Shown in pieces: positions 3,562 to 41,173 of a stretch of 55,545 nt of DNA; position 1 is the first letter of the stretch, and every line of letters begins with the position of its first letter. Under the pieces are notes generated by a model. The model saw only the letters and a program-made list of their open reading frames with translations, did no database searches and had not been told where the DNA came from. Origin of the DNA: Patescibacteria group bacterium (GTDB taxonomy: Bacteria; Patescibacteriota; Minisyncoccia; JACROR01); contig JBBTRG010000005.1 in the NCBI GenBank assembly GCA_038065295.1, positions 1 to 55,545 on the forward strand, read 5' to 3'. Made by a program: the position numbers and the translations under genes.

Positions 3562-4422
3562 TCATCGTGCGATATTAATGTTCCGTAACCAAAATTTATT
3601 TAAAGTTTTTTCTAATTTTTGTTTCTTCAATAATTCGCTATTTATTTTATCCACCGCCTTAAACAACTCTGGTTTTATTTTTTTATATTGAAAAACTTTA
3701 ATGAGGGTTTTTAAATCCTTTGGCAAACATTTACCGCCAAAGCCGCGATATTTTTTATGAATCACATGCAAATGATTACTACCTATCCAGGGCTCAGCCG
3801 CTAATGCTTCTTGAATGATTTTATAATCCACATTATAAGCTTGGCATAAATCATAAATTTGATTGGCAAAAATAACTTTAGTGGCAAAAAAAGCGTTGCG
3901 ACTGTATTTAAAAATTTCAGCGGCAGTGGCCGACATAATTTTTGCATATTTCGCGGAAGGTAAAATTTTTAAAACATGACTTACTAACGGTCTGCTTTTT
4001 TGAGTGCAACCGATCAATTGTAAGGCAGGTTTAGAAAAATCTTGCCAAGCCGTGGTTTCCGTCAACAATTCCGGATTATGCATAAAATAATGACGCGGGA
4101 AAAGCGTCTGCAGTTTTTCTGTTGTCCCAACCGGCACAGTTGATTTCACCACAAAAAGCTTCGGCTGTTTAAAAAACCTTATCATCTCTTTAAAAACCGA
4201 TAAATCCACGCCGCTTTTTTCTTTGTTAGAATAAGGCGTTGGCAAACACAAAAAAATAATCCGTGCCCTGTCTACATCTTCCCGAAAATCGCTTGCCTTA
4301 AATTTATCATAAGTAAAAATTTTATGGTTTTTTAATTTAAACCATCTTTGCACCTGCATGCCCACCATGCCAAGTCCGACTATGCCGATATTTTTATTAT
4401 CATTAGCAACAAATTTTGGCAT
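3562..4422 (-). CDS. short UDP-glucose/GDP-mannose dehydrogenase family protein (NAD-binding plus central domain only)
   Basis: 286 aa with a Rossmann motif NIGIVGLGMVGMQV and the family hallmark catalytic-Cys motif GFGGKCLPKDL near the C-terminus. No room remains for the usual C-terminal nucleotide-sugar-binding domain. Confidence 0.6.
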   Translation of the reverse strand: MPKFVANDNKNIGIVGLGMVGMQVQRWFKLKNHKIFTYDKFKASDFREDVDRARIIFLCLPTPYSNKEKSGVDLSVFKEMIRFFKQPKLFVVKSTVPVGTTEKLQTLFPRHYFMHNPELLTETTAWQDFSKPALQLIGCTQKSRPLVSHVLKILPSAKYAKIMSATAAEIFKYSRNAFFATKVIFANQIYDLCQAYNVDYKIIQEALAAEPWIGSNHLHVIHKKYRGFGGKCLPKDLKTLIKVFQYKKIKPELFKAVDKINSELLKKQKLEKTLNKFWLRNINIAR

Positions 4423-10483: not shown

Positions 10484-11530
10484 TTATTTAATCAAATCCC
10501 AGGAAATAGGCGTGCCGCGTTCTATATCAGTGGCAGCCCTTTTACCCATAACTTCATCGTAGTGTTTTGGCGCCAAACCATGCCCAGGGCGGATGGAGCG
10601 CATATTTTTTTCGCTGAAAACTTCTCCTTTTTTAAGGTCTTGAACCACAAAAAGCGATTTTCTAAAAACAATATTTTCTAATTCGGCAAGCCCCGCGCCA
10701 TACTGCGAACACCCCAAAGCTCTTTCCGCCGCTCTCACTGCCTGCACCGTCAATTGAAATCCATGGGGCTCCAGCGAAAAAGCAGCGTCTGGTCCTCCAT
10801 CTTCAACTGACAAAATAATATGTTTTTCTATGATTTTCGCGCCCAAAGCCACGGCCATAACTGACGTGTTAGCGCCCAAAGAATGATCCGACAATCCCAC
10901 CACGGCTTTAAACCTTTCCGCCATATCGGCAATAGTAGCCAAATTCATATCCTCCGCCTTGGCGGGATAAGCGCTCACACAGTGAAGCAGAGCCACATTC
11001 GGACATCCGTTGTCTTTCAAGGTTTTGACGGCAAACTCAATATCTTCCACCGATGCCATACCACGCGACACAATCACCGGCTTTTTAGTCTGCCCTATTT
11101 TTTTCAAAAGCGGATAATCCACTATCTCAAAAGAGGCGATTTTATATACTCCCACTCTCATTTTTTCCAAAAAATCCACTGCCGTATTATCAAATGGCGT
11201 AGAAAAAAACATCAAACCCTTGGATTCCGCGTATTTTTTCAATTTCGGTTGCCAATCCCATGGCGTACAAGCTTTTTTGTAAAGCTCATAGAGCGTCTGC
11301 CCCGCCCACGCGTCATTCACCTTCACCTGAAAATATTTTTTGTCGGAATCAATGGTTATGGTATCCGGCGTGTAAGTTTGAAGCTTTATCGCGTCAGCGC
11401 CGGCATCCGCCGCCGCATCAATGATTTGCAAAGCTTTTTCATAAGAATGATTATGATTGCCGGACATCTCCGCCACGATAAAAACACGATGTCCCTCCCC
11501 TATTTTTCTGCCGCCGATATCAATTTCCAT
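10484..11530 (-). CDS. pseI: pseudaminic acid synthase (NeuB family with C-terminal SAF domain)
   Basis: VFIVAEMSGNHNHSYEKAL..AGADAIKLQTYTPDTITIDSDK, LYELYKKACTPWDW, GLSDHSLG, IIEKH and SIRPGHGLAPKHYDEVMGKRA closely follow the C. jejuni PseI pattern as I remember it. The longest ORF extends to 11629, but the conserved region begins at MEIDIGG (ATG 11530). Confidence 0.85.
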   Translation of the reverse strand: MEIDIGGRKIGEGHRVFIVAEMSGNHNHSYEKALQIIDAAADAGADAIKLQTYTPDTITIDSDKKYFQVKVNDAWAGQTLYELYKKACTPWDWQPKLKKYAESKGLMFFSTPFDNTAVDFLEKMRVGVYKIASFEIVDYPLLKKIGQTKKPVIVSRGMASVEDIEFAVKTLKDNGCPNVALLHCVSAYPAKAEDMNLATIADMAERFKAVVGLSDHSLGANTSVMAVALGAKIIEKHIILSVEDGGPDAAFSLEPHGFQLTVQAVRAAERALGCSQYGAGLAELENIVFRKSLFVVQDLKKGEVFSEKNMRSIRPGHGLAPKHYDEVMGKRAATDIERGTPISWDLIK

Positions 11531-11587
11531 AATAAAATAAATATAATTTATTGAAACATCAATGTCCACTGGGTATTTTGACATGAT

Positions 11588-11626
11588 AAAAAATAAAAAA
11601 AACCCCATCGTTCGTAAACAATGGGG
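11588..11626 (-). terminator. possible intra-operon terminator/attenuator between pseH and pseI
   Basis: On the minus strand: a CCCCAT/ATGGGG 6-bp stem (11626..11621 / 11608..11603) with a 12-nt loop, followed by TTTTTTTTTATTTTTT. It starts 8 nt after the pseH stop. Confidence 0.4.
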
Positions 11627-11633
11627 CAATGCT

Positions 11634-12113
11634 TTAACGCGACAACATCATGTCAGCGCAGGTCTGTCCTTTCTCCGTCTTATAACCAACAGACACATAT
11701 CCCGCGTTCGCAAAACTGCAAAGCGAAGCCATATTATTCGGCTTTATGAGCGCCGTGACACGCAAAACGGCGGGATACTCACTAAATATTTTGGCCGAAG
11801 CCAATCTTATAATTTCCGTGCCGTATCCTTTGCCGCGGAAAAAAGAGGTCAAAGCGATATTTATTTCCACTTCCTTGCTCTCTGTTAAATCATGACCATC
11901 CATGGAATCAAATCTCACTTGCGCCATGGGCCGGCCATCAATCTCAACAATCAAAATCAGACTATCCAACGCCATCAGCTTTTTTTCAAACCATTTTTTA
12001 TGCGTCGAGAAATCTATCGGCTTGGAATTAAATGACACCTTGCGCACCGCATCTTCATTACGAAGGTCAAATAGAAAACAAACATCAGGCCATTTGGCTT
12101 TTCTTATCAGCAA
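11634..12113 (-). CDS. pseH: GNAT N-acetyltransferase, PseH-like
   Basis: 159 aa. 'FLFDLRNEDAVRKVSFNSKPIDFSTHKKWF' matches the PseH-type 'wRN..vr......i....H..Wf' pattern. It has a GNAT core (FFRGKGYGTEII) and a TTG start overlapping the upstream gene by 29 nt. Confidence 0.6.
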   Translation of the reverse strand: MLIRKAKWPDVCFLFDLRNEDAVRKVSFNSKPIDFSTHKKWFEKKLMALDSLILIVEIDGRPMAQVRFDSMDGHDLTESKEVEINIALTSFFRGKGYGTEIIRLASAKIFSEYPAVLRVTALIKPNNMASLCSFANAGYVSVGYKTEKGQTCADMMLSR

Positions 12114-13497
12114 ACTTATACCCGCCTTTCTTTATATCTGCTACGCCTTGTTTTTCAAGCTGCAATCGTTTTTTCATTACCCTGCTTTTATACGCTTTTT
12201 TGATGGCGATCGCCCATTTTTGTCTGTCATGAGACAAGCAGATTTTTTCCGCGGACATTAACTTAAGCCGCCCCGCGAAAAACATTAAAGCAAGATGCGG
12301 CATCTTGTTCGCATAATATTCTATCATAGTTTTTATTCTTGGCAAATGATATTCATTGGAAATTATAATCGCTCTCCGCCACCTTCGCTTGGCGCAAATT
12401 TTATCCGATTCCAATAAATTTTCAAAAGTATTGCGCGAATTCTTTTCCTTAATAATTTTAATTCGCGGAACATGCAATGCCATAAGCTCTTTTTTCATAA
12501 TATCGGATACTGCCGGCGCGTCCGATATTTTACGCAGCGACCCACTGCCTCCTGAAACCAAAACTACCACACGCGGATTTTTTAAAGTAACCTCTTTATA
12601 CGAATGCGCTCCTGCGACTATCCGCAGCCTGTCGCCCAATCCTTTAAAATTTTTACCCTCGTTAAAATTGGTGGTGCGCCAGCCAGTTTTGCCGTCTTTT
12701 TTTAAAAAACCGCTTAAAATAATAATGGCATCTGCCTGGCCTACCGCTTCTTTAGCAAGAGATTTTTTAAGGCCTTCATTGCGTTCCAGATGTTTATTCA
12801 CGGCAAAAAGCCGCGGCAGTTTTTTCTTTAATTTCAAAATGTCTTTCAATGCAAATTGCCGATTTTTCTCATAAAGCGCCTTAAAAATTCCACTGATAAC
12901 GATCAAATCCTCCTTATTATCTAAAGTCAGGCGCATATCGGAAAGATCCCTTTCATTTTTTATATTTCCTACGCGGAAAATTTCCGGATGGTCACCCATA
13001 AATAAAGTTACATGTTCGCGTTCAGACGAAAGTTTAGTATCGCGCCAAGCCGTTTCAAGCGTTTTGAATGAAAACACTTCAATATCCATACCATCAGGAT
13101 AGGTCGGAGGCCGAACATTGCTCACATAATCAAACCTGCTTCTGTTCCTTTTATAAAAATTCACCACCCGGTCAACTATCGCGGGATCCATCAACGGACA
13201 ATCGCCTGTTATCCGCACAATATCATCCGCCCCAAACTTTTTTGCCGCTTGATAATAACGATCCAGCACATCGTTCTCCGATCCGCGAAAATAATCCAAC
13301 CCAAGTTTTTTCGCCATCATAACCAATGGCTCGTCTGCTTGTAGATTAGTAGTGGCAATAATTATTTTATCCAAAAACTTCGCGCGCCGCAGCCGTTCAA
13401 TCAAATATTCAAGCATGGTTTTGCCCATCACTTTTTTCAAAATCTTTCCGGGCAAGCGCGTTGACCCCGTGCGAGCTTGTATAATAGCGGCAATCAT
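12085..13497 (-). CDS. SpsF/PseF-like cytidylyltransferase fused to a DUF218 (YdcF/SanA/ElyC-like) domain
   Basis: The N-terminal ~245 aa, MIAAIIQARTGSTRLPGKILKKVMGKTMLEYLIERL...ITGDCPLMDP, are a CTP_transf_3/SpsF-type domain. The C-terminal ~200 aa show the DUF218 pattern: AIIILSGF..., VVVLVSGGSG, NTFENL, AIIISNEYHLPR. Confidence 0.7.
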   Translation of the reverse strand: MIAAIIQARTGSTRLPGKILKKVMGKTMLEYLIERLRRAKFLDKIIIATTNLQADEPLVMMAKKLGLDYFRGSENDVLDRYYQAAKKFGADDIVRITGDCPLMDPAIVDRVVNFYKRNRSRFDYVSNVRPPTYPDGMDIEVFSFKTLETAWRDTKLSSEREHVTLFMGDHPEIFRVGNIKNERDLSDMRLTLDNKEDLIVISGIFKALYEKNRQFALKDILKLKKKLPRLFAVNKHLERNEGLKKSLAKEAVGQADAIIILSGFLKKDGKTGWRTTNFNEGKNFKGLGDRLRIVAGAHSYKEVTLKNPRVVVLVSGGSGSLRKISDAPAVSDIMKKELMALHVPRIKIIKEKNSRNTFENLLESDKICAKRRWRRAIIISNEYHLPRIKTMIEYYANKMPHLALMFFAGRLKLMSAEKICLSHDRQKWAIAIKKAYKSRVMKKRLQLEKQGVADIKKGGYKFADKKSQMA

Positions 13498-14838
13498 TTA
13501 AGTGAGACGCTTGAAGCCGGCGTGTGCCACCGGACCGCGCAATAATTTGCGGAGCGATTTATCAACAATCGCTTTTTTTATCAAAGCAAAAACTTTGTCC
13601 ACTGCGACAAGGTATTTTTCAACATCAGTTATTTTGTGTGCATAAGAAACATAAACGCTGGGCGATGCCAGATAGCCGCGCGCCAGCATCTCCTGCGTAA
13701 AAAGCGTGCGAATCGCCTGACTGTCTTTACCGTAATCAAAAGAAAAAGTAATCAGAGCTTCCGGACCAACCACGTTAATATTTAGACCATGCTTTTTCGC
13801 CAATTGCCGCCACCCTCTTCCAATTAATCCGCCTATTTTTTTCAAATGCGCCGGCAAATTTATTTTCTGCATTTTCTTGATAGTAGCAAGCGCCGCCACG
13901 GGACCGATGCGCTCCGTCCAATAAGTACTGCTGATAAAAGTATTTTGCGCCGTCTGCATTACGGATTTTTTACCGATAATTGCCGCCATGGGATAGCCGT
14001 TACTCATCGCTTTGCCCAGAACCGCGATATCGGGATAAACGCCGTAGCGCATATGCACGCCACCCACATTCAATCTCCACGCGATAGTTATCTCATCAAA
14101 AACCAAAACCGCCCCGATCCGTTTGGCGATTTTTTGAACCTTGCGCAGAAAATCATTTTCAGGCTCCTGATGTCGAAATGGTTCAACCACAATTACTCCG
14201 ATGTCTTTGTATGCTATGGCTAATTTTTCCAACTCTTCAATTTTATTATAGGCAAAAGCAATGGCAGTGCCCCGCAAACTGCGAGGGACACCAGCCGGAT
14301 CCAAACCTGGCAATAAATGTCCATCCAAACTTTTTTTATCGGCTAAATTTGCCGCCAAGTACCAATCCATCCAACCGTGATAACCGCAAAAAATTACTTT
14401 GTCCTTGCCGCTATAAGCTCGCGCAATACGCACCGCAATCGCCATGGCCTCTCCTCCAGTTCTCGCAAATCTCGCCATATCGGCCCAAGGATGAATACGA
14501 GTCAATAATTCCGCCAACTCCACCTCTTCCGGAGAATTTAAAGTAGACATAGAACCGTTATCAACCGCCGCTTTTACCGCCCTATTCACATCAGAATCAG
14601 CGTAACCCAAAGCGCAACTCCCCACCCCCATTATGGAAAAATCCTTATATTCCTTACCATCTAGATCCCACGCCTTGATTCCTCTTGCCTTTACATAATA
14701 AGAAGGCCATTGCTCGGGCAAAAACATTTCGGAGCGCTTGGATAACAACTGCGAACCGCCGGGAATGAATTGTTTGGCGCGCCTCCACAACATCACCCCT
14801 TTTGATACATTCATTTTTGTTTTCTTTTTCATATTCAT
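13498..14838 (-). CDS. class-III PLP aminotransferase (glutamate-1-semialdehyde aminomutase-like)
   Basis: 446 aa. Motifs ARTGGEAMAIAVRIARAYSGKDKVIFCGYHGW, VFDEITIAWR and LGKAMSNGYP (PLP Lys). Confidence 0.8.
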   Translation of the reverse strand: MNMKKKTKMNVSKGVMLWRRAKQFIPGGSQLLSKRSEMFLPEQWPSYYVKARGIKAWDLDGKEYKDFSIMGVGSCALGYADSDVNRAVKAAVDNGSMSTLNSPEEVELAELLTRIHPWADMARFARTGGEAMAIAVRIARAYSGKDKVIFCGYHGWMDWYLAANLADKKSLDGHLLPGLDPAGVPRSLRGTAIAFAYNKIEELEKLAIAYKDIGVIVVEPFRHQEPENDFLRKVQKIAKRIGAVLVFDEITIAWRLNVGGVHMRYGVYPDIAVLGKAMSNGYPMAAIIGKKSVMQTAQNTFISSTYWTERIGPVAALATIKKMQKINLPAHLKKIGGLIGRGWRQLAKKHGLNINVVGPEALITFSFDYGKDSQAIRTLFTQEMLARGYLASPSVYVSYAHKITDVEKYLVAVDKVFALIKKAIVDKSLRKLLRGPVAHAGFKRLT

Positions 14839-15788
14839 ACTCTTCGTGGCGCAGAAGCCTTAAGCAAAATTTCAATAATCCTCTTTCCGTCATTTAAATC
14901 CTGTAAGGGTTTTTGTCTTTGTTCAACGCATTCAAAAAAATGCTTAATCTCATCAACAAACATTTTATTGGAATCTCCATCGCCCCTATACAAAACTTTG
15001 CTTTTACTTTCATTTTCAAATTTTACCAAATCATCCATAAAATCAATCGTAAGCGTTCCCTTGTCTGTAACAGCATCAATGCTTTGTGCCCGTTTTCTGC
15101 TTACATAATCCAAGGCAACGGTACTTAACACACCACGCTTATGTTCAAACACCATGGCGGCAGATTCTTCGCTCTTAATCCCAAGCGACGATATTTTACT
15201 ACGATATATAAAACCATTTTTAATATCTCCAAATAAGGCAACCAAACAATTCATTATATGCGAACCGGAATCCAGCACTAGCGTTTCGTTTCTATATTTT
15301 TTTTGCGCGGCATATATATATTTACGATGCACCGGAATGGAATATCCCATCACAAAACGGGACAAAAGCGGCTTGCCATATAAATCGCTTTTCAAAATAC
15401 GCAATAATGCTATCAATCCTTTATGAAAAAGATAGTTACATGCGACCATAGCTACAAGCTTATTTTTCTTGCATAATTTTTGCAATTCATTAATGTGCGC
15501 CACACTACAAGAAAGAGGTTTTTCTATAAAAAGATGGCAGCCCGCTTTGGCGCATTGAAGTGCCGTTTTAATGTGCGCGCTGCTTGGGCTACAAATAAAC
15601 GCAACGTCAAATTGCGCAAGATTTTTATGTTTTATATCCGGTACTGTTTTTATATCTTTGCCAACGATTCTTTTTTTATCAATGTCGTAAACATAGACAT
15701 CTTTAAAACCAAGCTGGCATAAATTTTTATAATGCCGTCGGCCAATGGATCCAAAACCTATAATGATTATTTTGTGTTTTTTATTCAT
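14835..15788 (-). CDS. Gfo/Idh/MocA family NAD(P) oxidoreductase
   Basis: KIIIIGFGSIGRRHYKNL Rossmann motif and the FIEKPLS motif. It has 4-nt and 8-nt overlaps with its neighbours. Confidence 0.75.
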   Translation of the reverse strand: MNKKHKIIIIGFGSIGRRHYKNLCQLGFKDVYVYDIDKKRIVGKDIKTVPDIKHKNLAQFDVAFICSPSSAHIKTALQCAKAGCHLFIEKPLSCSVAHINELQKLCKKNKLVAMVACNYLFHKGLIALLRILKSDLYGKPLLSRFVMGYSIPVHRKYIYAAQKKYRNETLVLDSGSHIMNCLVALFGDIKNGFIYRSKISSLGIKSEESAAMVFEHKRGVLSTVALDYVSRKRAQSIDAVTDKGTLTIDFMDDLVKFENESKSKVLYRGDGDSNKMFVDEIKHFFECVEQRQKPLQDLNDGKRIIEILLKASAPRRV

Positions 15789-16866
15789 TTTCTACGCGCT
15801 CCAAATTATCACCGTACTTCTTTATTCTTGAATCATATGTGCCCAAAAAATAATCTTTATCATAATATTTTTCTCCCATAAATAACGGAATGGAGATTCC
15901 GCCAAAACCGCGTTTAAATTGAGAAATGTACTTTTCTTTGTCACTCGGAAAATTCTGTAGCGTGTCAGAATAATATTGCCAGCCTATCTCATAGAATTTA
16001 ATGCCTTGCTTACACATCCATTGAATAGCCTCCCACTGGATAAAATGAGCAATAGGAAGATTCCCCGCCTTTGAATCATTACACGCGGAACCATAATACA
16101 CATTATTCTTAAATATAAAAAAATAGGAAAATCCGATAAATTTATTTTCTTTTTGAGCCCCGATCAAAAAAGCGTCTCCATCTTTTATCCAGTCGTACAT
16201 CATATCAAATGTGATGCTTTTCCTCTTGGCTCTTCCGGGATCTTTATGGTGTAAATCCGTATATTTATCAAAAACTTCTCTAGTGATATTGGAACAGTCA
16301 AATACTGCCGCTGTTAATATTTTTGATGCCTTATCAATGTCAGAATCATGACCGTGCCTTACGCCTCTCCGCAATTCATCCACAGAACGCCTTAGATCTA
16401 AAATCTGCGTATTTAAAGACGCGTCAATAAAGCCGAATTGCATCAAAAAATTAAATGGCTGTTCGCGCGCCTCCACAAGAGACGGATTTAAAACAGCGCC
16501 TCTTAGCATGACACGCTTTACATTATTCTGCTTTGCAAGACAATCTATATACTTAAATATTTCTTTGAGAACGGCCTTTCGCTCGTTGCGTGTTAAATGA
16601 TTGGCTAATGCCGGAACAGGCCCGTAATAATGATTATACGAAAACTCCATAGCGCCATTGTTGTTTTCTAAAATTAACGGACAAATCGCCGCCATTTTAC
16701 CGTCCTTAAGCAAGAAAAATGATCGTGATTCGGACTGATTATTCACTTGAAAATTAAGCGTGTATTCAAGCCATTTGGAAGTATGCCAAAACCACGCGTC
16801 ATCACTTTCTAGACAAAATGCATCCCATTCTTTATACTTTTCTTGCGTGAGTTTAACGATTTCCAT
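15781..16866 (-). CDS. FemABX-like (GNAT-fold, aminoacyl-transferase-type) protein
   Basis: Starts MEIVKLTQEKYKEWDAFC...WFWHTSKWLEY. The C-terminal 'YISQFKRGFGG' resembles the FemABX hallmark 'FK.GFGG'. The longest ORF runs to 16950 inside pseC, but ATG 16866 sits 2 nt after the pseC stop. Confidence 0.6.
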   Translation of the reverse strand: MEIVKLTQEKYKEWDAFCLESDDAWFWHTSKWLEYTLNFQVNNQSESRSFFLLKDGKMAAICPLILENNNGAMEFSYNHYYGPVPALANHLTRNERKAVLKEIFKYIDCLAKQNNVKRVMLRGAVLNPSLVEAREQPFNFLMQFGFIDASLNTQILDLRRSVDELRRGVRHGHDSDIDKASKILTAAVFDCSNITREVFDKYTDLHHKDPGRAKRKSITFDMMYDWIKDGDAFLIGAQKENKFIGFSYFFIFKNNVYYGSACNDSKAGNLPIAHFIQWEAIQWMCKQGIKFYEIGWQYYSDTLQNFPSDKEKYISQFKRGFGGISIPLFMGEKYYDKDYFLGTYDSRIKKYGDNLERVENE

Positions 16867-16868
16867 AT

Positions 16869-17972
16869 TCAAAAAAAATCCACGATAAGACGCGCGATTT
16901 TCCTTATATCGGATTTTGCCAGCTTCGTATGGCACGGCAACGTGATACAAGAATTATGATATTCGTCCATATTTTTTAATTGAATATTTTTATAACCGTG
17001 CTTTCTATAATAAGGATGCGAATATACTGCGGGATAATGAAAATTAACTCCTATGCCATTTTTTAAAAGATATCTGTAAAGTGGCCATCTCATCTTGGGA
17101 TCTTTCACTCGTATCACATAAATATGCCATCCGTGATAACACTGCGGTAATTCTTTAGGCAACATAATCTCATTCGTCTCGCGCAATAGATTGCCATACC
17201 AGGAAACCACCGCGCGCCTTTTTTCAATAAACCGGTCCAGCTTCTTCAACTGACTTTTGCCCAAAGCCGCCTGCATATCCGTCATTCTGTAATTATAACC
17301 GAGCTCGGTCATAACATTTTGTCCGTTATCATCCTTATGAATCCCGTGGCTTCGCAGAGATATTAACTTTTCGTAAAATCTTTTATCGTTGGTCACGATG
17401 GCTCCACCTTCTCCAGTTGTCATGGACTTTACCGGATGGAAGCTAAACACAGCCGCATTTGAATACCGGCAACTTCCAATCTTGAATTTTTTATAACTCG
17501 CGCCCAGCGCGTGGCACGCGTCTTCAATAACAAACAATTTGCGCTTTTGGGCAACTTTCCATACGACCTCCATTTCGCATGGATGCCCCGCAAAATGAAC
17601 CGGAATAATTGCTCTAGTTTTGCGGGTAACCAATTTTTCTATTTCTGCTTCATCAATATTAAAAGTATCGCTTCTAATATCGCAAAAAACCGGGCGCGCG
17701 CCAACAGCTAACAACATATTGCTTGTCGCAACAAAGGTATTGGGAGTGGTAATCACATCATCTCCTCCCTTTAATCCCGCGGCGAGATAAGCAAGATGCA
17801 GTCCAGCCGTTCCATTGGAAACCGCCACGGCATATTTCACGCCACAGTAACTGGCAAGCGCTTTTTCAAAAGATGCTATCGCCGGCCCTTGAGTCAGCCA
17901 ATCGGAGCGCAAGACATCGACAACCGCCCCAATATCATCTTTGTCGATAGACTGGCGCCCATAAGGAATCAT
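16869..17972 (-). CDS. pseC: UDP-4-amino-4,6-dideoxy-N-acetyl-beta-L-altrosamine transaminase (DegT family)
   Basis: MIPYGRQSIDKDDIGAVVDVLRSDWLTQGPAIASFEKALASYCGVKYAVAVSNGTAGLH is the classical PseC N-terminus. The PLP Lys lies in SFHPVKSMTTGEGG. Confidence 0.85.
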   Translation of the reverse strand: MIPYGRQSIDKDDIGAVVDVLRSDWLTQGPAIASFEKALASYCGVKYAVAVSNGTAGLHLAYLAAGLKGGDDVITTPNTFVATSNMLLAVGARPVFCDIRSDTFNIDEAEIEKLVTRKTRAIIPVHFAGHPCEMEVVWKVAQKRKLFVIEDACHALGASYKKFKIGSCRYSNAAVFSFHPVKSMTTGEGGAIVTNDKRFYEKLISLRSHGIHKDDNGQNVMTELGYNYRMTDMQAALGKSQLKKLDRFIEKRRAVVSWYGNLLRETNEIMLPKELPQCYHGWHIYVIRVKDPKMRWPLYRYLLKNGIGVNFHYPAVYSHPYYRKHGYKNIQLKNMDEYHNSCITLPCHTKLAKSDIRKIARLIVDFF

Positions 17973-19009
17973 ACGAATTTGGATTCTGCAATAATCTTAA
18001 GCAATTCTTTCTTCGTGAGCCATTGATCGTTAGTATGGCTGGCGAAACAAAAACCATGCTTGGTTTTTTTGCCCATTTTCTCGTATTTTTTATACAAACC
18101 CTTTTTAAAATCCGTGAACTCACTTAATATGACATAGTGATTATCAAGCTCCATGGCGTGACGCGACTCGTCTTCCGTTAATAACATCTCATGCAACTTT
18201 TCTCCCGGCCTGATTCCTACAATTTCTTTTTCTATGCCTGGCGTTAAAGCATCAAGCAGATCCAGCACTTTCATGCTGCGTATTTTTGGCACGAAAATCT
18301 CTCCCCCGCTCATATGCGTCAATGCGAACATTACAAGCGCGAAACTTTGTTCCAGGCTGATCCAAAAACGCGTCATATCGGGATGAGTAACCTCTACTTT
18401 TTTAATCTTACTCGCGTCTTTGTTCTTTAACACATCAACCACGCTTCCACGGCTCCCAATCACGTTTCCATATCTTACGGCTGACAATACGGTTACCCGA
18501 TCCTTTGTCCTGTCGGCAAAAAAATTGCCGTTTATAAATAATTTTTCAGCGCATAATTTAGTCGCTCCATAAAGATTCACCGGTTGTGCCGCCTTGTCTG
18601 TTGATATCAACACCACCCTCTCAACGCCCTGATCAATAGCCGCGTCAATAACATTTTGGCTACCTAAAATATTCGTCCGTATGGCTTCAAATGGATTATA
18701 TTCTAAGGTCGGCACTTGTTTTAGCGCGGCGGCATGAATCACGATGTCAACAGTCCGAAACGCCCTTTGAAGCCGCGATAAATCGCGTATATCGCCAAGA
18801 AAAAAATTCAACCGCTCATCGTTAAACTCCGCCGACATTCGCGACTGCTTTAATTCATCTCTGCTGAAAACAATCACCTTGCGCGGTTCTGCATTGTGCA
18901 ATAAGTATTTAACGAATCCACGGCCAAAAGAACCGGTTCCTCCAGTAATCAAAATCGTTTTATTTTTTAAAAATTTAGTAGATATAGCTGACATATTTTG
19001 ATACGACAT
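17969..19009 (-). CDS. pseB: UDP-N-acetylglucosamine 4,6-dehydratase (inverting)
   Basis: Motifs KTILITGGTGSFG, VIVFSRDELKQ, FFLGDIRD, HAAALKQVP, ISTDKAAQPVNLYGATKLCAEKLF. Confidence 0.9.
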   Translation of the reverse strand: MSYQNMSAISTKFLKNKTILITGGTGSFGRGFVKYLLHNAEPRKVIVFSRDELKQSRMSAEFNDERLNFFLGDIRDLSRLQRAFRTVDIVIHAAALKQVPTLEYNPFEAIRTNILGSQNVIDAAIDQGVERVVLISTDKAAQPVNLYGATKLCAEKLFINGNFFADRTKDRVTVLSAVRYGNVIGSRGSVVDVLKNKDASKIKKVEVTHPDMTRFWISLEQSFALVMFALTHMSGGEIFVPKIRSMKVLDLLDALTPGIEKEIVGIRPGEKLHEMLLTEDESRHAMELDNHYVILSEFTDFKKGLYKKYEKMGKKTKHGFCFASHTNDQWLTKKELLKIIAESKFV

Positions 19010-19172: not shown

Positions 19173-20873
19173 ATGACAAAAGATTCTGATCCTAAGTTTT
19201 ACCAACGATTTGACGCATCAAGTAAAATAAAAGATCCCTTGTTGCCACGCATCACGAACGATGAAACGATTGGGTTATTCCCCGCGCATGAAGACGGCTT
19301 GCGTATATTGCTTATTAACGCGCCTATTCGCGAGTGGTCATATCCCAACATTATGCCAATCGGGCAAGGATATGTCGGGGCTGTTGCCAAAATGGATGGA
19401 CACAATCTGCATGTCCTTGATCTGAACGCAGAGAGAGGCGGCCCGATAAAAGACGCTCCTGAAATATTTATTAAGCGCGTGGAAGAGCGCATTGTTCAAA
19501 AGTTGAAAGAAATAAAGCCTGATGTTATAGGGTTGGGCGGCATTATCACTCAATATGCGTGGATTAAGCGCATCACGACTATCTGTAAACAAGTCTATCA
19601 CGATGTTCCGATTGTGTTGGGCGGCGGAATTTCTTCTTGCGCGCCCGTATTTATGGTGAAATATTTGCCAATCGATGTTGCGATTAGAGAAGAAGGCGAA
19701 ATTACTTTTTCCGAAGTGCTTCATCGTGTAGCGCTTGGTGCGTCGTTAGATGGCGTAAAAGGAATAGTTTGGCGCAAAAATAATTCCAGAGAATCCGATA
19801 TAATTGACAATGGTCTTCGTCCATCCATTATGTCGCTCCGAGACGGTCTGGATTTTCTCCCGTGGCCATTGCGTTTCGCGTGGCCCGAAGAAGAAGTCTA
19901 CAAAAAAAATCCTATTGGGCATTTGAATTGGAAAACAAAATGGATTGACGGCGCATCAACGGAGGCAAACCAATACTCGCTCACTATGATTGCCTCGCGC
20001 GGCTGTCCATACGCGGCTAAAGCTTGCGATTATTGCTATTCCGCGTACCTGGGGAAACATTACCGATTGCGAAGCCCCAAAGAAGTCGTCGATGAAATGC
20101 AATACTTAAAAGAACATTACCAAGCCGCCTATATTCACTTTTTGGATGATCTGTTGTTAACAAACTACCGATGGGCGCTTGAACTTTTCCAAGAGTTAAG
20201 AAACAGGAAAGACAAATCGGGTTTTGAAATTATTTGGGGTGGTACGTGCCGCACAAATATCGTCGCTGACGATGTTTTGCGGGCACAAAAAGAGGGACGC
20301 CCACACATGCTTGAGCAAGCTTACGAAGTTGGCATGCGGCAAGTAGGATACGGCGTTGAATCGGCCAGTCCCCTTATCCTCAAAAACATTGATAAAAGTG
20401 GCCAGACAATAGCTAAAATGGAAATAGCCATCGCGGAAACACGAAGAATTATGGGTTACGCCGATTGTTCTTTTATGATAGCTTCTCCGGGAGAAACTAA
20501 AGAAACCGTTCGAGAAACTGTGGATTTTTGCAAAAAAGTTGGCTTGAAGCCCGAAGTGTTTTTCTTCACTACCGCTTATCCAGGCACCACTTTTTGGAAT
20601 CTTGCATTGGAGAAGGGTCTTATCACTAAAGCGGTTACTGGGAAAAAAGGTTCTGCGGATGAGGATATGATTGAACAGTATTTCCTACGCTTGGGCGAAC
20701 AAGGAGATATGGTCAGGACAAATTTTAGCGATCTGCCGGATGAAGAGATAATTGAATTATCCTGGTGGGCCATCAACGAACTTGGCGCACAAAACATCAT
20801 TCGTCATCCACATACTGGAGAAACGCAGACAAGACAAACTCCCGTAAAGGGAGCAGCAAAAGCCGATTTATAA
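19173..20873 (+). CDS. B12-binding-domain radical SAM protein (class B-like) with non-canonical Cys spacing
   Basis: 566 aa. The N-terminal region is B12-binding-like (LRILLINAP..., DVIGLGGIITQY, PIVLGGG). The radical SAM core is SRGCPYAAKACDYCYS, verified at DNA level (tgt cca tac gcg gct aaa gct tgc gat tat tgc). Confidence 0.8.
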   Translation: MTKDSDPKFYQRFDASSKIKDPLLPRITNDETIGLFPAHEDGLRILLINAPIREWSYPNIMPIGQGYVGAVAKMDGHNLHVLDLNAERGGPIKDAPEIFIKRVEERIVQKLKEIKPDVIGLGGIITQYAWIKRITTICKQVYHDVPIVLGGGISSCAPVFMVKYLPIDVAIREEGEITFSEVLHRVALGASLDGVKGIVWRKNNSRESDIIDNGLRPSIMSLRDGLDFLPWPLRFAWPEEEVYKKNPIGHLNWKTKWIDGASTEANQYSLTMIASRGCPYAAKACDYCYSAYLGKHYRLRSPKEVVDEMQYLKEHYQAAYIHFLDDLLLTNYRWALELFQELRNRKDKSGFEIIWGGTCRTNIVADDVLRAQKEGRPHMLEQAYEVGMRQVGYGVESASPLILKNIDKSGQTIAKMEIAIAETRRIMGYADCSFMIASPGETKETVRETVDFCKKVGLKPEVFFFTTAYPGTTFWNLALEKGLITKAVTGKKGSADEDMIEQYFLRLGEQGDMVRTNFSDLPDEEIIELSWWAINELGAQNIIRHPHTGETQTRQTPVKGAAKADL

Positions 20874-20984: not shown

Positions 20985-22436
20985 TTATTCAAGCTCTGGC
21001 AAAATGGCTTGAATAATATTATTCATACCCTCTCGCCCACTTTTTTTCAGCCTCCTCCCCATCGGTTCACTTATGCCCGCAAACCCATGAATGGAGGCAT
21101 CGTCAAAGGCCTTTAAATAATTAATTATTTTTTGCTGATCCACGCGAAAACCGTTCGCGATCTTTTGCAAAACCTCTTGGCACGACTCAACGCCCGTTAT
21201 CCGGAAAACTGCGTGGCAATATTGATACCACGGATAACCGAAAATCATCACTGGCTTTGACCGCAACACCGCTTCAAAACCGGCACTGCCAATAATCGTA
21301 GCAACCGCCTGAGCATTGCCAATCAAATCGTAATTATTGGTATCAACCGGCACTAATTTGACGTTGGATAATTTTGACATTCTTTTATAATAACCCCGAT
21401 ATCGGGCGCTGAAAAAATTTAAACCACGAAAAAGCCATTGCACCGGATGCTCTTTTACATAAATAATCCACTCATCAGGCACAGAGGCGGATAAAATCTC
21501 AATCATTAAAATTTGGTCAACAAACACCCCTCCCTGAGGGCTGGTGGAGCATTCCGGCTGGTAGTGAAGCGGCACATAAATAAATTTTTTTGTAAAATCG
21601 GGCATTGATTGAACACTCTCGTATTCTTCTTTAATATTTTGCCGAAAAAGTTTTTGTATATACCCCAACACTCTTGGGAAAAAAGTGGCATCCTTGATGC
21701 TCCACAATATCATTTTGATTTTTAATGCCGCTAATCTAAAACCGGAGTATAAATTTTTGTCTTCCTGGATGCATAATGGAGTCGGATCGCCGCGCGCGGC
21801 AGTATGCATCTCATAATACTCCCGCAGATCTTTACTCAAGTCCTTCAAAGAAAAATTCTTTCCTTCGTTTCTCTCAAGCGCGTCAAGAAGCGGCTGGCTT
21901 GATTTCCATGAATCTATGCTCATCAGCATCCTATCACTGTCCGGTATCCCCACCCTGGAAATGGTATCAAATAAAATAATTTTAATATTCAACAACTGCG
22001 CCAATCCATAAATAATGTAACTAAACGGCGCGTGTGGAACTACAGAAAATATCACAACGTCCGGACGATATTTATTCAGCACACCATTCCAATATTGGAG
22101 CGTGTTGTAATAAACATGCCTTCTCTCATCAACGCACATCCAGTCAAAACGCTTGTTCATCATGGATAAAACCAAAGATTCGGTTTCATGCAATTGCTCA
22201 ATAAGGGTCGCTCCAGGAGGATAAAACTTTGTCACATCAATGCCTGAAGCCGAAATGCCGTTTCGAGCGGCGCTATGAGTATGAACCACCGTCCCGAGAA
22301 TTTCTATTTTTCTATCACTTCCCGCCCCAACCCAATAGACTACTTCGTGTCCGGCATCCTTTAATGAGGAGATTAAATATTCTGTTTCCGGGCTCTGACT
22401 GAACCAGGCTAATAAGATTTTCATAGTATGTAGCAA
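20985..22436 (-). CDS. KpsS/KpsC-like (Capsule_synth-like) putative ulosonic-acid glycosyltransferase, paralogue A
   Basis: The core FIYVPLHYQPECST...IIYVKEHPVQW...SNVKLVP...IIGSAGFEAVLRSKPVMIFG resembles capsule-synthesis (beta-Kdo transferase type) proteins with an HP dipeptide. The track start is TTG; ATG 22424 (MKILLAWF) is the likely start. Confidence 0.45.
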   Translation of the reverse strand: MLHTMKILLAWFSQSPETEYLISSLKDAGHEVVYWVGAGSDRKIEILGTVVHTHSAARNGISASGIDVTKFYPPGATLIEQLHETESLVLSMMNKRFDWMCVDERRHVYYNTLQYWNGVLNKYRPDVVIFSVVPHAPFSYIIYGLAQLLNIKIILFDTISRVGIPDSDRMLMSIDSWKSSQPLLDALERNEGKNFSLKDLSKDLREYYEMHTAARGDPTPLCIQEDKNLYSGFRLAALKIKMILWSIKDATFFPRVLGYIQKLFRQNIKEEYESVQSMPDFTKKFIYVPLHYQPECSTSPQGGVFVDQILMIEILSASVPDEWIIYVKEHPVQWLFRGLNFFSARYRGYYKRMSKLSNVKLVPVDTNNYDLIGNAQAVATIIGSAGFEAVLRSKPVMIFGYPWYQYCHAVFRITGVESCQEVLQKIANGFRVDQQKIINYLKAFDDASIHGFAGISEPMGRRLKKSGREGMNNIIQAILPELE

Positions 22437-22516: not shown

Positions 22517-24304
22517 TCACTTTTTAATATTCTGAGTCTTAAAAAAATATGACTCTTTGTCCTGCATAAGTTCACCGGGTGCGCCCTCCTCAATAATCTT
22601 ACCGCCATCCAATACATACAACTTGTCGGATGCCATTATCGTAGAAAGGCGATGGGCAATGACTATCACGGTCGTCTTACTTTTAAGCTCTTTGATGGAT
22701 TTTTGTATCAAAACTTCGGATTCATTATCTAAAGCCGAAGTGGCTTCGTCAAGAATAAGAATTTGCGGCTTTCTTGCCAGCGCCCTTGCCAAAACAATAC
22801 GCTGTCGCTGTCCGCCGGAAAGCCGCACGCCGCGCTCTCCGACTACCGTATTAAAGCCATTTGGCTGTTTTGCAATAAAATCATAAATATTGGCTAATCT
22901 AGCGGCCGCCTCAATGTCTTCATCGCTTAACGAGTCATCATAAAACCTGATATTGCTAGAAATAGTGTCATTAATCAAAAATATATCCTGCGACACATAA
23001 CCGACATTACGCCTCCACTCACCCAAGCTAAAATCCGTGACATTGGTTCCGTCTACTAATATGGAGCCGGCCTGCGGCCGTAACAAACGCAAAATAAGAT
23101 CAACTATCGTGGTTTTGCCAGCACCAGAAGGCCCAATCAATCCTATCATCGCGCCCTTCTTTATAGAAAAGGACACGTCCGACAACACCCGAGCGTCATC
23201 TTGGTAAGCAAAACTTATATTCTTTAACTCAAGAATATGATTGAAATTAAATTTTTTAATACCGGAATCTTTTTCCTGGTGCCTGATGATTTCTTTTTCA
23301 TAATCCAGCACGCTTATCAGGTGCGGGACCTGCGTAATCATTTTATGTACCTGCGTTTGTGATAATTGTATATTTACAAATACCCGATTAATCATGTACA
23401 CAATCACCGCAAACGAAGCGAAACTAAACGCGTTTGTTTTATAAAAAAAGGCGAATATACCGATTATAAAAAAAAGTCCGACAGGCTGCAGAACCGCGTT
23501 GGTAAAATTCTCCAACATGGCCACCTTAATGTTTAGATTTCTCATATTATCAAAATACAAAAGACCCTTTTGCAGAGCTTGATGCTCAACAAACATGGAT
23601 TTAATGGTTTTTATTCCGATAATATTTTCATTGACATAGTGCGCCAAAAGCTTATATTTCTGTACAAATTCCCTTGAAATAATTCTGTTTTTATAAAACA
23701 AAGGCTTAAAAAGCAAAAGGAGGAGTCCGCCCAAGACAAGCGCCAGCACGGCAATGATAAATGATATATTAATGGCTATTAAGCTATAAACAATGAGATT
23801 CACCACTATCAAAATAGCGCCTCCAATATAAAAAAGAAGGGCGGAACTATTATTGACATGCGTGGTCAAGATTTGATCAAGGTGGCCGATTTTTTGTCTA
23901 GATAAATACGGCCAATCTGCCGCGAATGTTGATTGCAACAATCTTCTCCTGGTGTTTCTTTCATAATCGGCCTTGATTCTGACGGAAAGATATTGAGTAA
24001 TAAATAATGCGATGGCCTTAAAAATGAACAGCAAGACCATAAAAATAAGCAAGAACTTGACTGTGTAACTCAAATGAAAATAAGAAAAAAAATGCTGTAT
24101 GGTCTTAGAAATCGCATCGTCGGCGTCACTGCCGGCAATAAGGGAAAACATCGGAATAACGGCATTAATGCCAATGCCCTCTAAAACGCCGCTCACAAAA
24201 CTTAAAACGGCCATTCCAATAATCTGCCCTTTATATTGTCCGAAGGCTTGCCGGAATAATTTTAAAACGGTCAATATTTTATTGTCCTTGAGGTTGAAAA
24301 TCAC
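22517..24304 (-). CDS. fused TMD-NBD ABC exporter (MsbA/PglK-like lipid-linked glycan flippase type)
   Basis: 595 aa with a six-helix N-terminal domain, Walker A GPSGAGKTT, signature LSGGQRQR and Walker B ILILDEATSALD. Confidence 0.9.
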   Translation of the reverse strand: MIFNLKDNKILTVLKLFRQAFGQYKGQIIGMAVLSFVSGVLEGIGINAVIPMFSLIAGSDADDAISKTIQHFFSYFHLSYTVKFLLIFMVLLFIFKAIALFITQYLSVRIKADYERNTRRRLLQSTFAADWPYLSRQKIGHLDQILTTHVNNSSALLFYIGGAILIVVNLIVYSLIAINISFIIAVLALVLGGLLLLLFKPLFYKNRIISREFVQKYKLLAHYVNENIIGIKTIKSMFVEHQALQKGLLYFDNMRNLNIKVAMLENFTNAVLQPVGLFFIIGIFAFFYKTNAFSFASFAVIVYMINRVFVNIQLSQTQVHKMITQVPHLISVLDYEKEIIRHQEKDSGIKKFNFNHILELKNISFAYQDDARVLSDVSFSIKKGAMIGLIGPSGAGKTTIVDLILRLLRPQAGSILVDGTNVTDFSLGEWRRNVGYVSQDIFLINDTISSNIRFYDDSLSDEDIEAAARLANIYDFIAKQPNGFNTVVGERGVRLSGGQRQRIVLARALARKPQILILDEATSALDNESEVLIQKSIKELKSKTTVIVIAHRLSTIMASDKLYVLDGGKIIEEGAPGELMQDKESYFFKTQNIKK

Positions 24305-25139: not shown

Positions 25140-25520
25140 TTATATTTCTGCCAACATGGTGCTCGCCAAATTGTAGTCTCCATCAAGAGTTAAAGATTTT
25201 TGAAAACATTCTCTGGCTTCCGCCTTCTTACCTACGTCCAGCAAAATTAATCCTAAATTGTAATGATAATGCGAAAATGAGCCGTCCAAAGCTATCGCGC
25301 GCCTCAATGATTTTTCCGCCGCGGCAAAATCGCCAAAATGATACTGAATCAAGCCGCTTAAATGTGGTGCCATAGAACAGCGCGGATTATTTACATAAAT
25401 TTTACGATAAATTATCTCTGCCGATTGAAAATTACCTGCCTTATGATATTCCAAAGCCCGCGACAATGCCTCGCTCTCGCTCAACAATTCTTGTCCGATT
25501 TTAATATGATTATCCGTCAT
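25140..25520 (-). CDS. small TPR-repeat protein
   Basis: 126 aa with three TPR-like units (ALEYHKAGNFQSAEIIYRKI, GLIQYHFGDFAAAEKSLRRAIALD, YNLGLILLDVGKKAEARECFQKSLTLD). It has an ATGA overlap with neuA. Confidence 0.75.
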   Translation of the reverse strand: MTDNHIKIGQELLSESEALSRALEYHKAGNFQSAEIIYRKIYVNNPRCSMAPHLSGLIQYHFGDFAAAEKSLRRAIALDGSFSHYHYNLGLILLDVGKKAEARECFQKSLTLDGDYNLASTMLAEI

Positions 25521-26233
25521 GTCTTCTTAAATTTCTGCAAATAAAACTCAACTAATTCTAAATCGGCCGGCTCGTTGATGTCAACGGATCTCTCCGTGGG
25601 CATCATATACGGTCTGGAAATCTGACCAAATAAATCACCCCGCGTAATTAAATCTGTCTTTGTGATAAATACGGCGCCATTCCGTCTGTATGCTTTGTCC
25701 AAAAATTGCCTCGGGGTTGATTGTCTACCCTCTCTATCGCCATCGTCAAACGGCACAATCACGTCATTTTCTATTCTTTTTATTTTCTCCAACGCAAAAT
25801 TCTCCAACAAAACCATGCTCATAACCGAATCGGCATCGGTATCAATAATTTTTTGTATACACGCGTCAATATCTTGTGCCGTTCGCAATGGTGATGTCGG
25901 CTGTAAAATCATTAAATAATCGTACTCTTCTCCTTGATTTTCCTTCAGCCAATTAAGCGCGTGCTGAACAACAGCCATAGACGCGCTTCTGTCTTGAGCC
26001 AGCTCCGCTGGCCTTAAAAACGGCACGTCCGCGCCATATTTTTTGGAAATCTCTACGATCTCTTGATCATCGGTTGAAACAATACATCTAGTCAAAAAAC
26101 GGCTGGCCAATGCCGCCTCTATCGTATAGGCAATCAAGGGCTTGCCTTCCAAAAGTTTTATATTCTTGCCCGGAATGCCTTTTGATCCGCCTCGTGCCGT
26201 AATAACCCCCAAGATTTTCTTATTTATATACAT
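25517..26233 (-). CDS. neuA: acylneuraminate (nonulosonate) cytidylyltransferase
   Basis: GVITARGGSKGIPGKNIKLLEGKPLIAYTIEAA and ILQPTSPLR are the CMP-NulO synthetase signature. The protein is 238 aa. Confidence 0.85.
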   Translation of the reverse strand: MYINKKILGVITARGGSKGIPGKNIKLLEGKPLIAYTIEAALASRFLTRCIVSTDDQEIVEISKKYGADVPFLRPAELAQDRSASMAVVQHALNWLKENQGEEYDYLMILQPTSPLRTAQDIDACIQKIIDTDADSVMSMVLLENFALEKIKRIENDVIVPFDDGDREGRQSTPRQFLDKAYRRNGAVFITKTDLITRGDLFGQISRPYMMPTERSVDINEPADLELVEFYLQKFKKT

Positions 26234-26255
26234 AATAATCTATGCGCTATTTCAT

Positions 26256-28233: not shown

Positions 28234-28246
28234 TCCGCCCTAAATA

Positions 28247-39926: not shown

Positions 39927-40474
39927 CGTACACCTCCTTTTTCCATACTTAAAATCATCTTCGCTGCGGACAATAGATCATTAGAAGCATAATCACGAAC
40001 AATACCGATATTATAATTTGTCCTTACTAATACGGTTTTGCATCCTGCCGCCTGTCCCGCCAGCATATCGTTTTGAGTATCGCCGACCATATACGACCGG
40101 CTAAGATCAATGTTCCACATTTCTGCCGCCAAAAACAGCATGCCGGGCTTCGGTTTTTTGCAGGGACAATTAACCTCCCTGGTGTGGCGGCACATAAATA
40201 TGTCGTCAAAAGCTAAAGTGCGGACTTGTCTGTGAATTTTTTGCCATTCTTCCTCCAGTATATGGCCGTAAGCCACATCCGGCTGATTGGTAATCAAAAT
40301 ACAGAGAAATCCATTTTTCTTTAAACGAGACAACGCTTCAAGCGTGCCGCTTAAATCCAAAAAGGCAAATTCTTGAAAATGGAAAGGTGCGGTGGGGAGG
40401 GTAAATCCTTCATGATAAACCGGCTTCACCACCACACCATCGCGATCAATAAAAACCGCGCGCTTTTTACTCAT
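39923..40474 (-). CDS. gmhB: D-glycero-D-manno-heptose 1,7-bisphosphate phosphatase (HAD-IIIA)
   Basis: AVFIDRDGVV, ITNQPDVA, and a Zn motif CRHTREVNCPCKKPKPGM. Confidence 0.8.
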   Translation of the reverse strand: MSKKRAVFIDRDGVVVKPVYHEGFTLPTAPFHFQEFAFLDLSGTLEALSRLKKNGFLCILITNQPDVAYGHILEEEWQKIHRQVRTLAFDDIFMCRHTREVNCPCKKPKPGMLFLAAEMWNIDLSRSYMVGDTQNDMLAGQAAGCKTVLVRTNYNIGIVRDYASNDLLSAAKMILSMEKGGVR

Positions 40475-41096: not shown

Positions 41097-41173
41097 CCTC
41101 CTTTATGTATTTAGTTGTAAAATAGCTTTCTTAACTTATCACCATAAAAGCACAAAAGCTAAATTTTATCAAT

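Follow-up and report, generated by a model that had tools for sequence, protein, structure and literature searches.

A pseudaminic acid-type operon of a Patescibacteria group bacterium lacks PseG and encodes a cytidylyltransferase-fused DUF218 domain as a candidate replacement hydrolase

Pseudaminic acids (Pse) decorate flagella, capsules and S-layers, and the six-enzyme pathway that makes them is a target for drugs and glyco-engineering as well as a template for predicting sugars from genomes. Here we analysed a 55,545-nucleotide stretch of DNA from an uncultured Patescibacteria group bacterium of groundwater (GenBank assembly GCA_038065295.1, contig JBBTRG010000005.1, positions 1 to 55,545; hereafter the window), in which open reading frame (ORF) calls and profile searches place eight co-directional genes, PseB through PseI, on the minus strand from 19009 down to 10484. 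By the curated models the block is a Pse operon, and it has no recognizable gene for the UDP-sugar hydrolase PseG; the best candidate for a replacement is a DUF218 domain fused to the cytidylyltransferase of the operon. The main value of the analysis is a specific, testable function for DUF218, together with a candidate route to an 8-amino nonulosonic acid.

The assignment of the operon is carried by PseB, PseC and PseI, all of which score above the curated cut-offs of their models (Table 1). By orthology, PseB and PseC yield UDP-4-amino-4,6-dideoxy-beta-L-AltNAc, and the hexose, once freed, is condensed with phosphoenolpyruvate by PseI. An earlier reading of the DNA from its letters alone (the sequence-only reading) had placed these three genes in the same direction as a cytidylyltransferase and a GNAT acetyltransferase, an arrangement that the ORFs and the NCBIfam and Pfam profiles confirm. 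It had also described the genes inserted between PseC and the cytidylyltransferase as translationally coupled. Coupling extends from PseB through GNAT, seven tightly coupled genes with junctions of between −29 and +2 nt (in order −4, +2, −8, −4, 0 and −29 nt, the PseB stop overlapping the PseC start by 4 nt), and does not include PseI, which is set off from the other seven by a gap of 49–103 nt containing a strong terminator-like hairpin (the likely PseI start is the ATG at 11530, the alternative the ATG at 11584). A promoter-like site at 11568–11540 follows the hairpin and its T-run ahead of PseI, and PseI may be transcribed or attenuated separately. The GNAT protein, which occupies the position of PseH, bears a weak resemblance to the PseH model TIGR03585 (19.8 bits, E 6e-4, cut-off 93), and a profile seeded with it also picks up the GNAT domain of the PseG::GNAT fusions found in canonical cassettes. 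The same block is present in the metagenome-assembled genome GCA_964364825.1 and on a Hainich groundwater contig.

The sequence-only reading had seen a Pse-type operon without PseG, and within the 55.5-kb window this was borne out by Pfam, by NCBIfam and by a six-frame search. Of the ORFs of 120 aa or more, nearly all were scanned and none matched PF04101 or TIGR03590, and a local PseG hidden Markov model (HMM), run against all six-frame stop-to-stop segments, returned a best hit of only E 0.74. A 365-aa protein at 31311–32408 (+), which belongs to no assigned family and shows only a weak signal of Epimerase_2/GT-B type at its C-terminus, was considered as a PseG and rejected (8.6% in hhalign against a verified PseG profile).

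The same reading had called the sixth gene a cytidylyltransferase. The label fits the CTP_transf_3 match at residues 3–213 and overlooks the fused DUF218 domain, whose match to PF02698 spans residues 256–396 (66 bits, cut-off 27.6). The nearest relatives of the 470-aa fusion protein come from Patescibacteria, including Giovannonibacteria and Paceibacterota, and a word-indexed protein search with the DUF218 domain returned only 10 relatives, all of them without names. In Helicobacter pylori, HP0326 encodes both PseF and PseG as a single reading frame, of which the SpsF::DUF218 fusion would be an architectural analogue. Homology between DUF218 and PseG was itself considered and rejected (3% in a profile–profile hhalign comparison).

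The distribution of DUF218 among related clusters supports its place in the pathway. A metagenome scan with the domain yielded 64 loci, which together with the loci found earlier gave 54 non-redundant members at no more than 90% identity. PseG is absent from all 54, whereas it occurs in 40 of 75 loci that have the SpsF-type cytidylyltransferase and lack DUF218 (p ~5e-13 in a naive Fisher test, in which loci related by descent are counted as if independent). PseI is present in 42 of the 54 and is the next gene downstream of DUF218 in 36, mostly overlapping it or lying a few nucleotides away; the gene upstream is mostly that for SpsF or for a class-III aminotransferase (AT3). Fusion to SpsF was seen in only four members, so the arrangement in the window is a minority form. 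Some loci read simply PseF-like, GNAT, DUF218, PseI (L120 and L125), an order that leaves DUF218 as the sole gene for the hydrolase step, and P0002, a triple fusion of the form SpsF::DUF218::GNAT, is the counterpart of the PseG::GNAT fusion that is commonly seen. The PseG calls on which the comparison depends were checked: ten of ten sampled proteins match TIGR03590 (263 bits for the first member against a cut-off of 154; best E 1e-90).

To our knowledge, no reaction is known for the large DUF218 family, which includes YdcF, SanA, ElyC and YgjQ of Escherichia coli, all members of the same Pfam family (PF02698) as the fused domain. Among the papers listed in our search of the literature, none joined DUF218 with a nonulosonic-acid term. 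Since a fold search with the model of the full 470-aa protein returned only cytidylyltransferases, the DUF218 domain was modelled alone. Its AlphaFold model (pLDDT 88.9) has a single significant match in the Protein Data Bank (PDB) by Foldseek, E. coli YdcF (3CA8, E 9e-6, probability 1.0, TM ~0.45), and the weaker similarities of the model point to nucleotide-binding HUP-type folds. T357, H384 and E337/E351/E417 vary little or not at all within the alignment of the fusions. A Thr/His/Glu triad that matters in SanA has been proposed to be catalytic there (PMC12176290), and the same types of residue are conserved here, a likeness drawn by type and not position by position. Unlike SanA and ElyC, which are periplasmic, membrane-anchored and tied to peptidoglycan and enterobacterial common antigen (ECA) homeostasis, the fused domain is cytoplasmic, is fused or adjacent to nonulosonate enzymes, and has a C-terminal helical extension.

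Judging from these contexts, DUF218 very probably belongs to the Pse pathway. That it carries out the PseG reaction itself is a closer call, which we would settle only just in its favour. The suggestion of the sequence-only reading that the hydrolase had been replaced by a non-orthologous enzyme is likely to be right, with a candidate that it had overlooked.

Several observations weigh against this assignment. DUF218 is not known to be a hydrolase. The anticorrelation with PseG is phylogenetically non-independent and many DUF218 loci lie on short contigs. Our search for PseG covered the 55.5-kb window, and a pseG may lie at a distance in the genome. Moreover, both PseG and DUF218 are missing from 12 of 51 SpsF loci that are fairly complete, from which it follows that the hydrolase need not sit in the cluster, and many loci of the Candidate Phyla Radiation (CPR) lack PseG whether or not DUF218 is present. 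A pseG elsewhere in the genome, or a housekeeping hydrolase, could then free the sugar, and DUF218 would have another role in the pathway: that of a phosphatase acting after NUDIX-type cleavage, of an esterase or deacylase, or of a nucleotide-binding protein without catalytic function that partners the cytidylyltransferase or PseI. Such roles would suit the locus L091, which has a NUDIX gene and DUF218 together, the likeness of the DUF218 fold to nucleotide alpha-hydrolase/HUP proteins, whose targets are phosphates and not glycosidic bonds, and the report that YdcF binds S-adenosylmethionine (PMC12176290). We nevertheless regard this explanation as unlikely, because about 25 of the 54 loci without PseG are at least 10 kb long, DUF218 sits exactly in the PseG slot, the minimal loci hold no other gene for the step, and a NUDIX gene is missing from most DUF218 loci.

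DUF218, our preferred replacement, may not be the only one. In a closed CPR genome (CP066691, locus L090), a 439-aa HAD::NUDIX-like protein at 16683–18002 occupies the PseG slot in the order AKR-AT3-SpsF-[HAD::NUDIX]-GNAT-NeuB (AKR, aldo-keto reductase; the NUDIX box was recognized by eye). Combining a pyrophosphatase with a phosphatase, it would be a second candidate replacement and suggests that several unrelated hydrolases can fill the slot. Clustering of the unannotated ORFs in loci without PseG and DUF218 revealed no shared hydrolase; the ORFs that clustered were tailoring genes only (formyltransferase, PIG-L deacetylase, WbqC, ATP-grasp and further types, among them a xylose-isomerase-like TIM barrel, methyltransferases and HisH/HisF/PseA-like proteins).

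The N-terminal half of the fusion protein is SpsF-type and not PseF-type: it scores 33.6 bits against the PseF model TIGR03584 (cut-off 206) and matches PDB 6OEW, a Leptospira cytidylyltransferase for which we found no publication, with E 1e-47 and TM 0.94. The genetics of Bacillus subtilis SpsF, from the sps legionaminic acid pathway, fit a CMP-nonulosonate synthetase (PMC7439481), and the operon enzyme falls in the same subfamily by the COG1861/SpsF naming of its relatives. The sps cluster differs from the operon in having SpsG, which is PseG-like, and in lacking both the oxidoreductase/aminotransferase pair and DUF218. We predict that the SpsF-type domain is the CMP-pseudaminate synthetase. 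A PseF-like gene 12 kb away (25517–26233, −) scores 168 bits against TIGR03584, also under the cut-off, and could serve the Pse operon, which counts against this prediction. The SpsF-type enzyme would then act on another molecule, or on the tailored sugar only. The gap between 168 and 34 bits is in keeping with such a division, as is the presence of two CTP_transf_3 genes both in the window and in about 14 other loci. Yet most canonical cassettes have no cytidylyltransferase gene other than the SpsF-type one within about 10 kb on each side, the PseF-like gene of the window adjoins a separate NeuC/NeuB-like cluster, and B. subtilis SpsF as well as EpaA and ElaB (see below) are consistent with nonulosonate activation; a CMP-Pse synthetase other than the SpsF-type domain is accordingly improbable.

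Further fusions of cytidylyltransferases were encountered. In L140, L147–L150, L152 and L155, ORFs that match both the PseI and the SpsF profiles appear to be NeuB-like::cytidylyltransferase fusions and are immediately followed by DUF218 and another PseI, and P0028 is a CTP_transf_3::GNAT::NeuB triple fusion.

Next to the cytidylyltransferase, the operon encodes a Gfo/Idh/MocA oxidoreductase (GFO), whose sequence contains an EKP motif, and an AT3 enzyme whose best NCBIfam match is the glutamate-1-semialdehyde (GSA)-aminomutase-like PRK06209 (256 bits, under the cut-off); its PLP-binding lysine was assigned by eye in the motif VLGKAMSNGYP of the translation. The sequence-only reading had treated these two proteins and the FemAB-like protein as three non-canonical enzymes inserted into the pathway. 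Comparative analysis upholds this for the FemAB-like protein, which is rare, and not for the other two. When one genome per species was scanned with the SpsF domain, at least 579 relatives came up, and the best 80 loci were annotated with HMMs built for the analysis: AT3 is present in 67 of the 80 and an AKR or a GFO in 63. SpsF::AT3 is a single protein in 20 of these loci, and AKR::SpsF, SpsF::AKR and GNAT::GFO fusions were seen as well. The typical order is PseB-PseC-(AKR|GFO)-SpsF-AT3-PseG-GNAT-PseI, either type of enzyme filling the oxidoreductase slot, and such cassettes are spread over Proteobacteria, Acidobacteria, Nitrospirae, Chloroflexi, Omnitrophota, Planctomycetes, CPR and archaea. 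Earlier accounts of Legionella serogroup 6/12 and of a Vibrio cluster mention this trio and do not explain it. The oxidoreductase, AT3 and the SpsF-type enzyme thus make up a single conserved functional module. Since most clusters that carry the module keep a bona fide PseG, its presence is independent of PseG loss.

Two described systems suggest what this module may do. In Acinetobacter baumannii, ElaB (CTP-transferase), ElaA (Gfo/Idh/MocA) and ElaC (short-chain dehydrogenase/reductase, SDR) have been proposed to form a route to 8-epi-legionaminic acid, in which the C8 hydroxyl of CMP-legionaminic acid is oxidized by ElaA and the product is reduced to the 8-epimer (PMC13656337), while phage-borne EpaA (CTP_transf_3::Aldo_ket_red) and EpaB (SDR) convert Pse to 8-epi-Pse (PMC12053666). 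Both link, and sometimes fuse, a CTP_transf_3 enzyme to a Gfo/Idh/MocA protein or an AKR; in the operon the corresponding genes are adjacent, the SpsF::AKR and AKR::SpsF fusions of its relatives have the architecture of EpaA, and the alternation of AKR and GFO among the cassettes parallels that between EpaA and ElaA. The best PDB match of the operon oxidoreductase is 3EZY (E 3e-13), the very structure that has been reported as nearest to ElaA (PMC13656337). The likeness to ElaA, ElaB and EpaA is drawn indirectly, from this shared structure and from architecture, and not by comparing sequences. It also has limits: the operon cytidylyltransferase is of the SpsF subfamily, and where the Ela and Epa systems use an SDR as second enzyme and end in epimerization, the operon has no such SDR and an AT3 in its stead, so that amination would be the predicted outcome.

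By this analogy, the simplest reading is that the module takes CMP-Pse through an 8-keto intermediate to 8-amino-8-deoxy-Pse, a proposal that we rate close to an even chance and no higher. The only CH(OH)-CH3 group is that at C8, a precursor of the methyl-ketone type preferred by class-III transaminases, and repeated fusions to the cytidylyltransferase point to CMP-nonulosonate, or nonulosonate, as the substrate. Solved structures related to the aminotransferase include GSA aminomutases as well as 7lld and 7lm0, two C-6' aminotransferases of aminoglycoside pathways, which act on CH(X)-CH3 termini. A natural 8-amino sugar of the Pse type does exist: the O-antigen of Tenacibaculum maritimum contains 5-acetamido-7-(3-hydroxybutyramido)-8-amino-3,5,7,8,9-pentadeoxy-manno-nonulosonic acid (PMC3210612), for which our literature search found no gene assignment.

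Other considerations tell against the 8-amino sugar. As a rule AKRs reduce and do not oxidize, C8 is singled out as the site of oxidation and amination by analogy only, and the activity of ElaA is itself a proposal from structures, docking and genetics (PMC13656337). The oxidoreductase and AT3 might instead act at C4, epimerize a centre by way of a keto intermediate, or make or alter an N-acyl side chain, for example an amino- or hydroxy-acyl group. This alternative draws on the Ela/Epa analogy being the one source for the site of action, on the racemases and epimerases among class-III enzymes (9wrf and 2zuk are PDB relatives of the operon protein), on the single GNAT of many cassettes, which would leave the new amine free, and on a literature in which we found no report of widespread triamino nonulosonic acids. 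Set against the fusions, the chemistry of C8 and the T. maritimum sugar, we judge it to be a minority possibility, and retain amination at C8 as the working proposal. More broadly, the sequence-only reading expected a modified nonulosonic acid, and the gene context supports it: the most plausible product carries an additional amino group, an aminoacyl group or both.

The aminoacyl group would come from the FemAB-like protein, which we assign, with low confidence, to the Fem/aminoacyl-tRNA transferase superfamily. The protein matches TIGR04421 collinearly over its full length and reaches 18 bits against PF13480 (cut-off 22), placing it under every curated cut-off, a point against its proposed role. 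Its family comprises at least 166 relatives, mostly from CPR and mostly without names; of 30 relatives, 25 match PF13480 and seven match PF02388 (FemAB), one (P0232) is fused to a GatB_Yqey tRNA-binding domain, and the top PDB matches of the family profile are FemX proteins (E 0.07). FemX and FemABX belong to a peptidoglycan context, whereas the operon protein stands in nonulosonic-acid synthesis, where its acceptor is presumably an amino sugar. The gene is always found in Pse-type clusters, those of archaea included (L016 and L075), and in about four of ten loci it occurs with no GNAT. It usually follows PseC directly, as it does in the window and in L090, L091, L093, L100, L113 and L133, and L091 has it without AT3 and without GFO, which speaks for the PseC-made amine as its substrate and against a new 8-amine. 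Its more likely role is therefore to aminoacylate that amine, which becomes N7 of the sugar, either in place of acetylation or ahead of it. Two recent Pfam families, PLP_IMCC1989 (PF27889) and LIC12162 (PF27859), neither of which is in the window, accompany the gene in some clusters (L091 and L092). The FemAB-like gene and the exchange of PseG for DUF218 are the features special to this lineage.

Altogether, the operon may be read as a variant of the canonical PseB-PseC-PseH-PseG-PseI-PseF route of Campylobacter jejuni and H. pylori, with which it shares PseB, PseC and PseI, orthologous by curated models, as well as the same operon logic with a GNAT in the PseH position; it differs in having no GT-B hydrolase PseG, in its SpsF-type::DUF218 cytidylyltransferase, and in its three further enzymes. 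The amine made by PseC would be acylated by the FemAB-like protein (with an aminoacyl group from aminoacyl-tRNA), by GNAT (with an acetyl group) or by both, and the DUF218 domain, instead of PseG, would remove UDP. After the PseI step, the SpsF-type domain would make the CMP-nonulosonate, the Gfo/Idh/MocA enzyme would oxidize the C8 hydroxyl of the CMP-sugar to a methyl ketone, as proposed for ElaA, and the class-III aminotransferase would turn the 8-keto sugar into its 8-amino-8-deoxy derivative. A Capsule_synth-like neighbour would transfer the product and an ATP-binding cassette (ABC) transporter export it. The steps beyond PseB, PseC and PseI derive from sequence and gene context; as a whole, with DUF218, the tailoring module and the FemAB-like protein, the scheme seems to us as likely to be right as wrong.

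Were the scheme correct, the pathway would escape genome predictions that require PseG, both in CPR and in uncultured lineages related to them, a module linked to 8-amino nonulosonic acids would explain a sugar that is known and genetically orphan, and the Ela/Epa logic of tailoring at the level of the CMP-sugar would be extended. A soluble DUF218 protein in a pathway with one defined missing step would also offer a direct in vitro assay for the fold. SanA and ElyC affect the balance of peptidoglycan and ECA and resistance to vancomycin or detergent. A more speculative generalization, tentative at best, is that this DUF218 subfamily is a cytoplasmic UDP-sugar hydrolase replacing PseG, that the fold cleaves sugar-diphosphate carriers in general, and that the module is the 8-amino-8-deoxy nonulosonic acid pathway; SanA and ElyC would then hydrolyse undecaprenyl-diphosphate-linked intermediates of peptidoglycan or ECA.

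Table 1. Genes and features of the Pse operon and of the neighbouring nonulosonic-acid genes, in positions of the window (PLP, pyridoxal 5'-phosphate; GSA, glutamate-1-semialdehyde).
Feature	Position	Strand	Evidence
PseB, UDP-GlcNAc 4,6-dehydratase (inverting)	17969-19009	-	TIGR03589 444 bits (cut-off 408); PF02719 E 1e-94
PseC, DegT-type aminotransferase forming UDP-4-amino-4,6-dideoxy-beta-L-AltNAc	16869-17972	-	TIGR03588 451 bits (cut-off 424); PF01041 E 1e-120
FemAB-like protein, 361 aa	15781-16866	-	TIGR04421 (FemAB_IMCC1989) 86 bits (cut-off 250); weak PF13480
Gfo/Idh/MocA oxidoreductase, 317 aa	14835-15788	-	PF01408 E 1e-16; PF22725
Class-III (GSA-aminomutase-like) PLP aminotransferase, 446 aa	13498-14838	-	PF00202 E 5e-37
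Cytidylyltransferase::DUF218 fusion, 470 aa	12085-13497	-	PF02348 + PF02698
SpsF-type CTP_transf_3 domain, residues 1 to ~250 of the fusion	12748-13497	-	PF02348 E 4.5e-31 (match residues 3-213)
DUF218 (YdcF/SanA/ElyC family) domain, residues 251-470 and stop codon	12085-12747	-	PF02698 E 4e-18
GNAT N-acetyltransferase, 159 aa, PseH-equivalent position	11634-12113	-	PF13302 E 2e-9
Terminator-like hairpin, 11 pairs, then eight T, between GNAT and PseI	11602-11627	-	
PseI, pseudaminic acid synthase	10484-11530/11584	-	TIGR03586 466 bits (cut-off 340); PF03102 + SAF
Capsule_synth (PF05159)/BFO_1060-like putative nonulosonate transferase	20985-22436	-	Pfam, NCBIfam
ABC exporter	22517-24304	-	Pfam, NCBIfam
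PseF-like cytidylyltransferase	25517-26233	-	TIGR03584 168 bits
NeuC-type hydrolysing UDP-GlcNAc 2-epimerase	27064-28233	-	TIGR03568 385 bits, over cut-off
Divergent NeuB-like synthase	28247-29338	-	256 bits, under cut-off
Second Capsule_synth (PF05159)/BFO_1060-like protein	29436-30992	+	

The operon lies within a larger set of glycan genes. In L003 and L090, too, an ABC exporter gene is followed by a Capsule_synth gene and then by PseB, and L005 shows this succession with other genes in between. A second nonulosonic-acid cluster (25517–29338, −) contains the NeuC-type, NeuB-like and PseF-like genes together with two methyltransferase-like genes and a tetratricopeptide repeat protein, and the organism probably makes two different nonulosonic acids. 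The two Capsule_synth proteins, one next to each cluster, are possibly nonulosonate transferases.

Almost all of the window is a single glycan island, and if the organism has a small genome of typical CPR size, the island would take up a large part of it. A sugar-nucleotide block at 39192–47606 (−) has transaldolase/FSA-like, HAD, SIS and GHMP-kinase genes, as in a heptose-type pathway, along with a second Gfo/Idh/MocA gene, a GT2, an NTP-transferase and a second DegT aminotransferase. At 3562–4422 (−), a 286-aa ORF resembling UDP-glucose/GDP-mannose dehydrogenases has an incomplete N-terminal domain, a central domain and no C-terminal domain, and may be truncated or a pseudogene. Finally, B12-binding radical-SAM proteins are encoded inside the island at 19173–20873 (+) and 44245–45771 (−); similar genes also adjoin the SpsF-type clusters L008 and L009, and SpsF::radical-SAM/SPASM fusions occur in P0005 and P0008.

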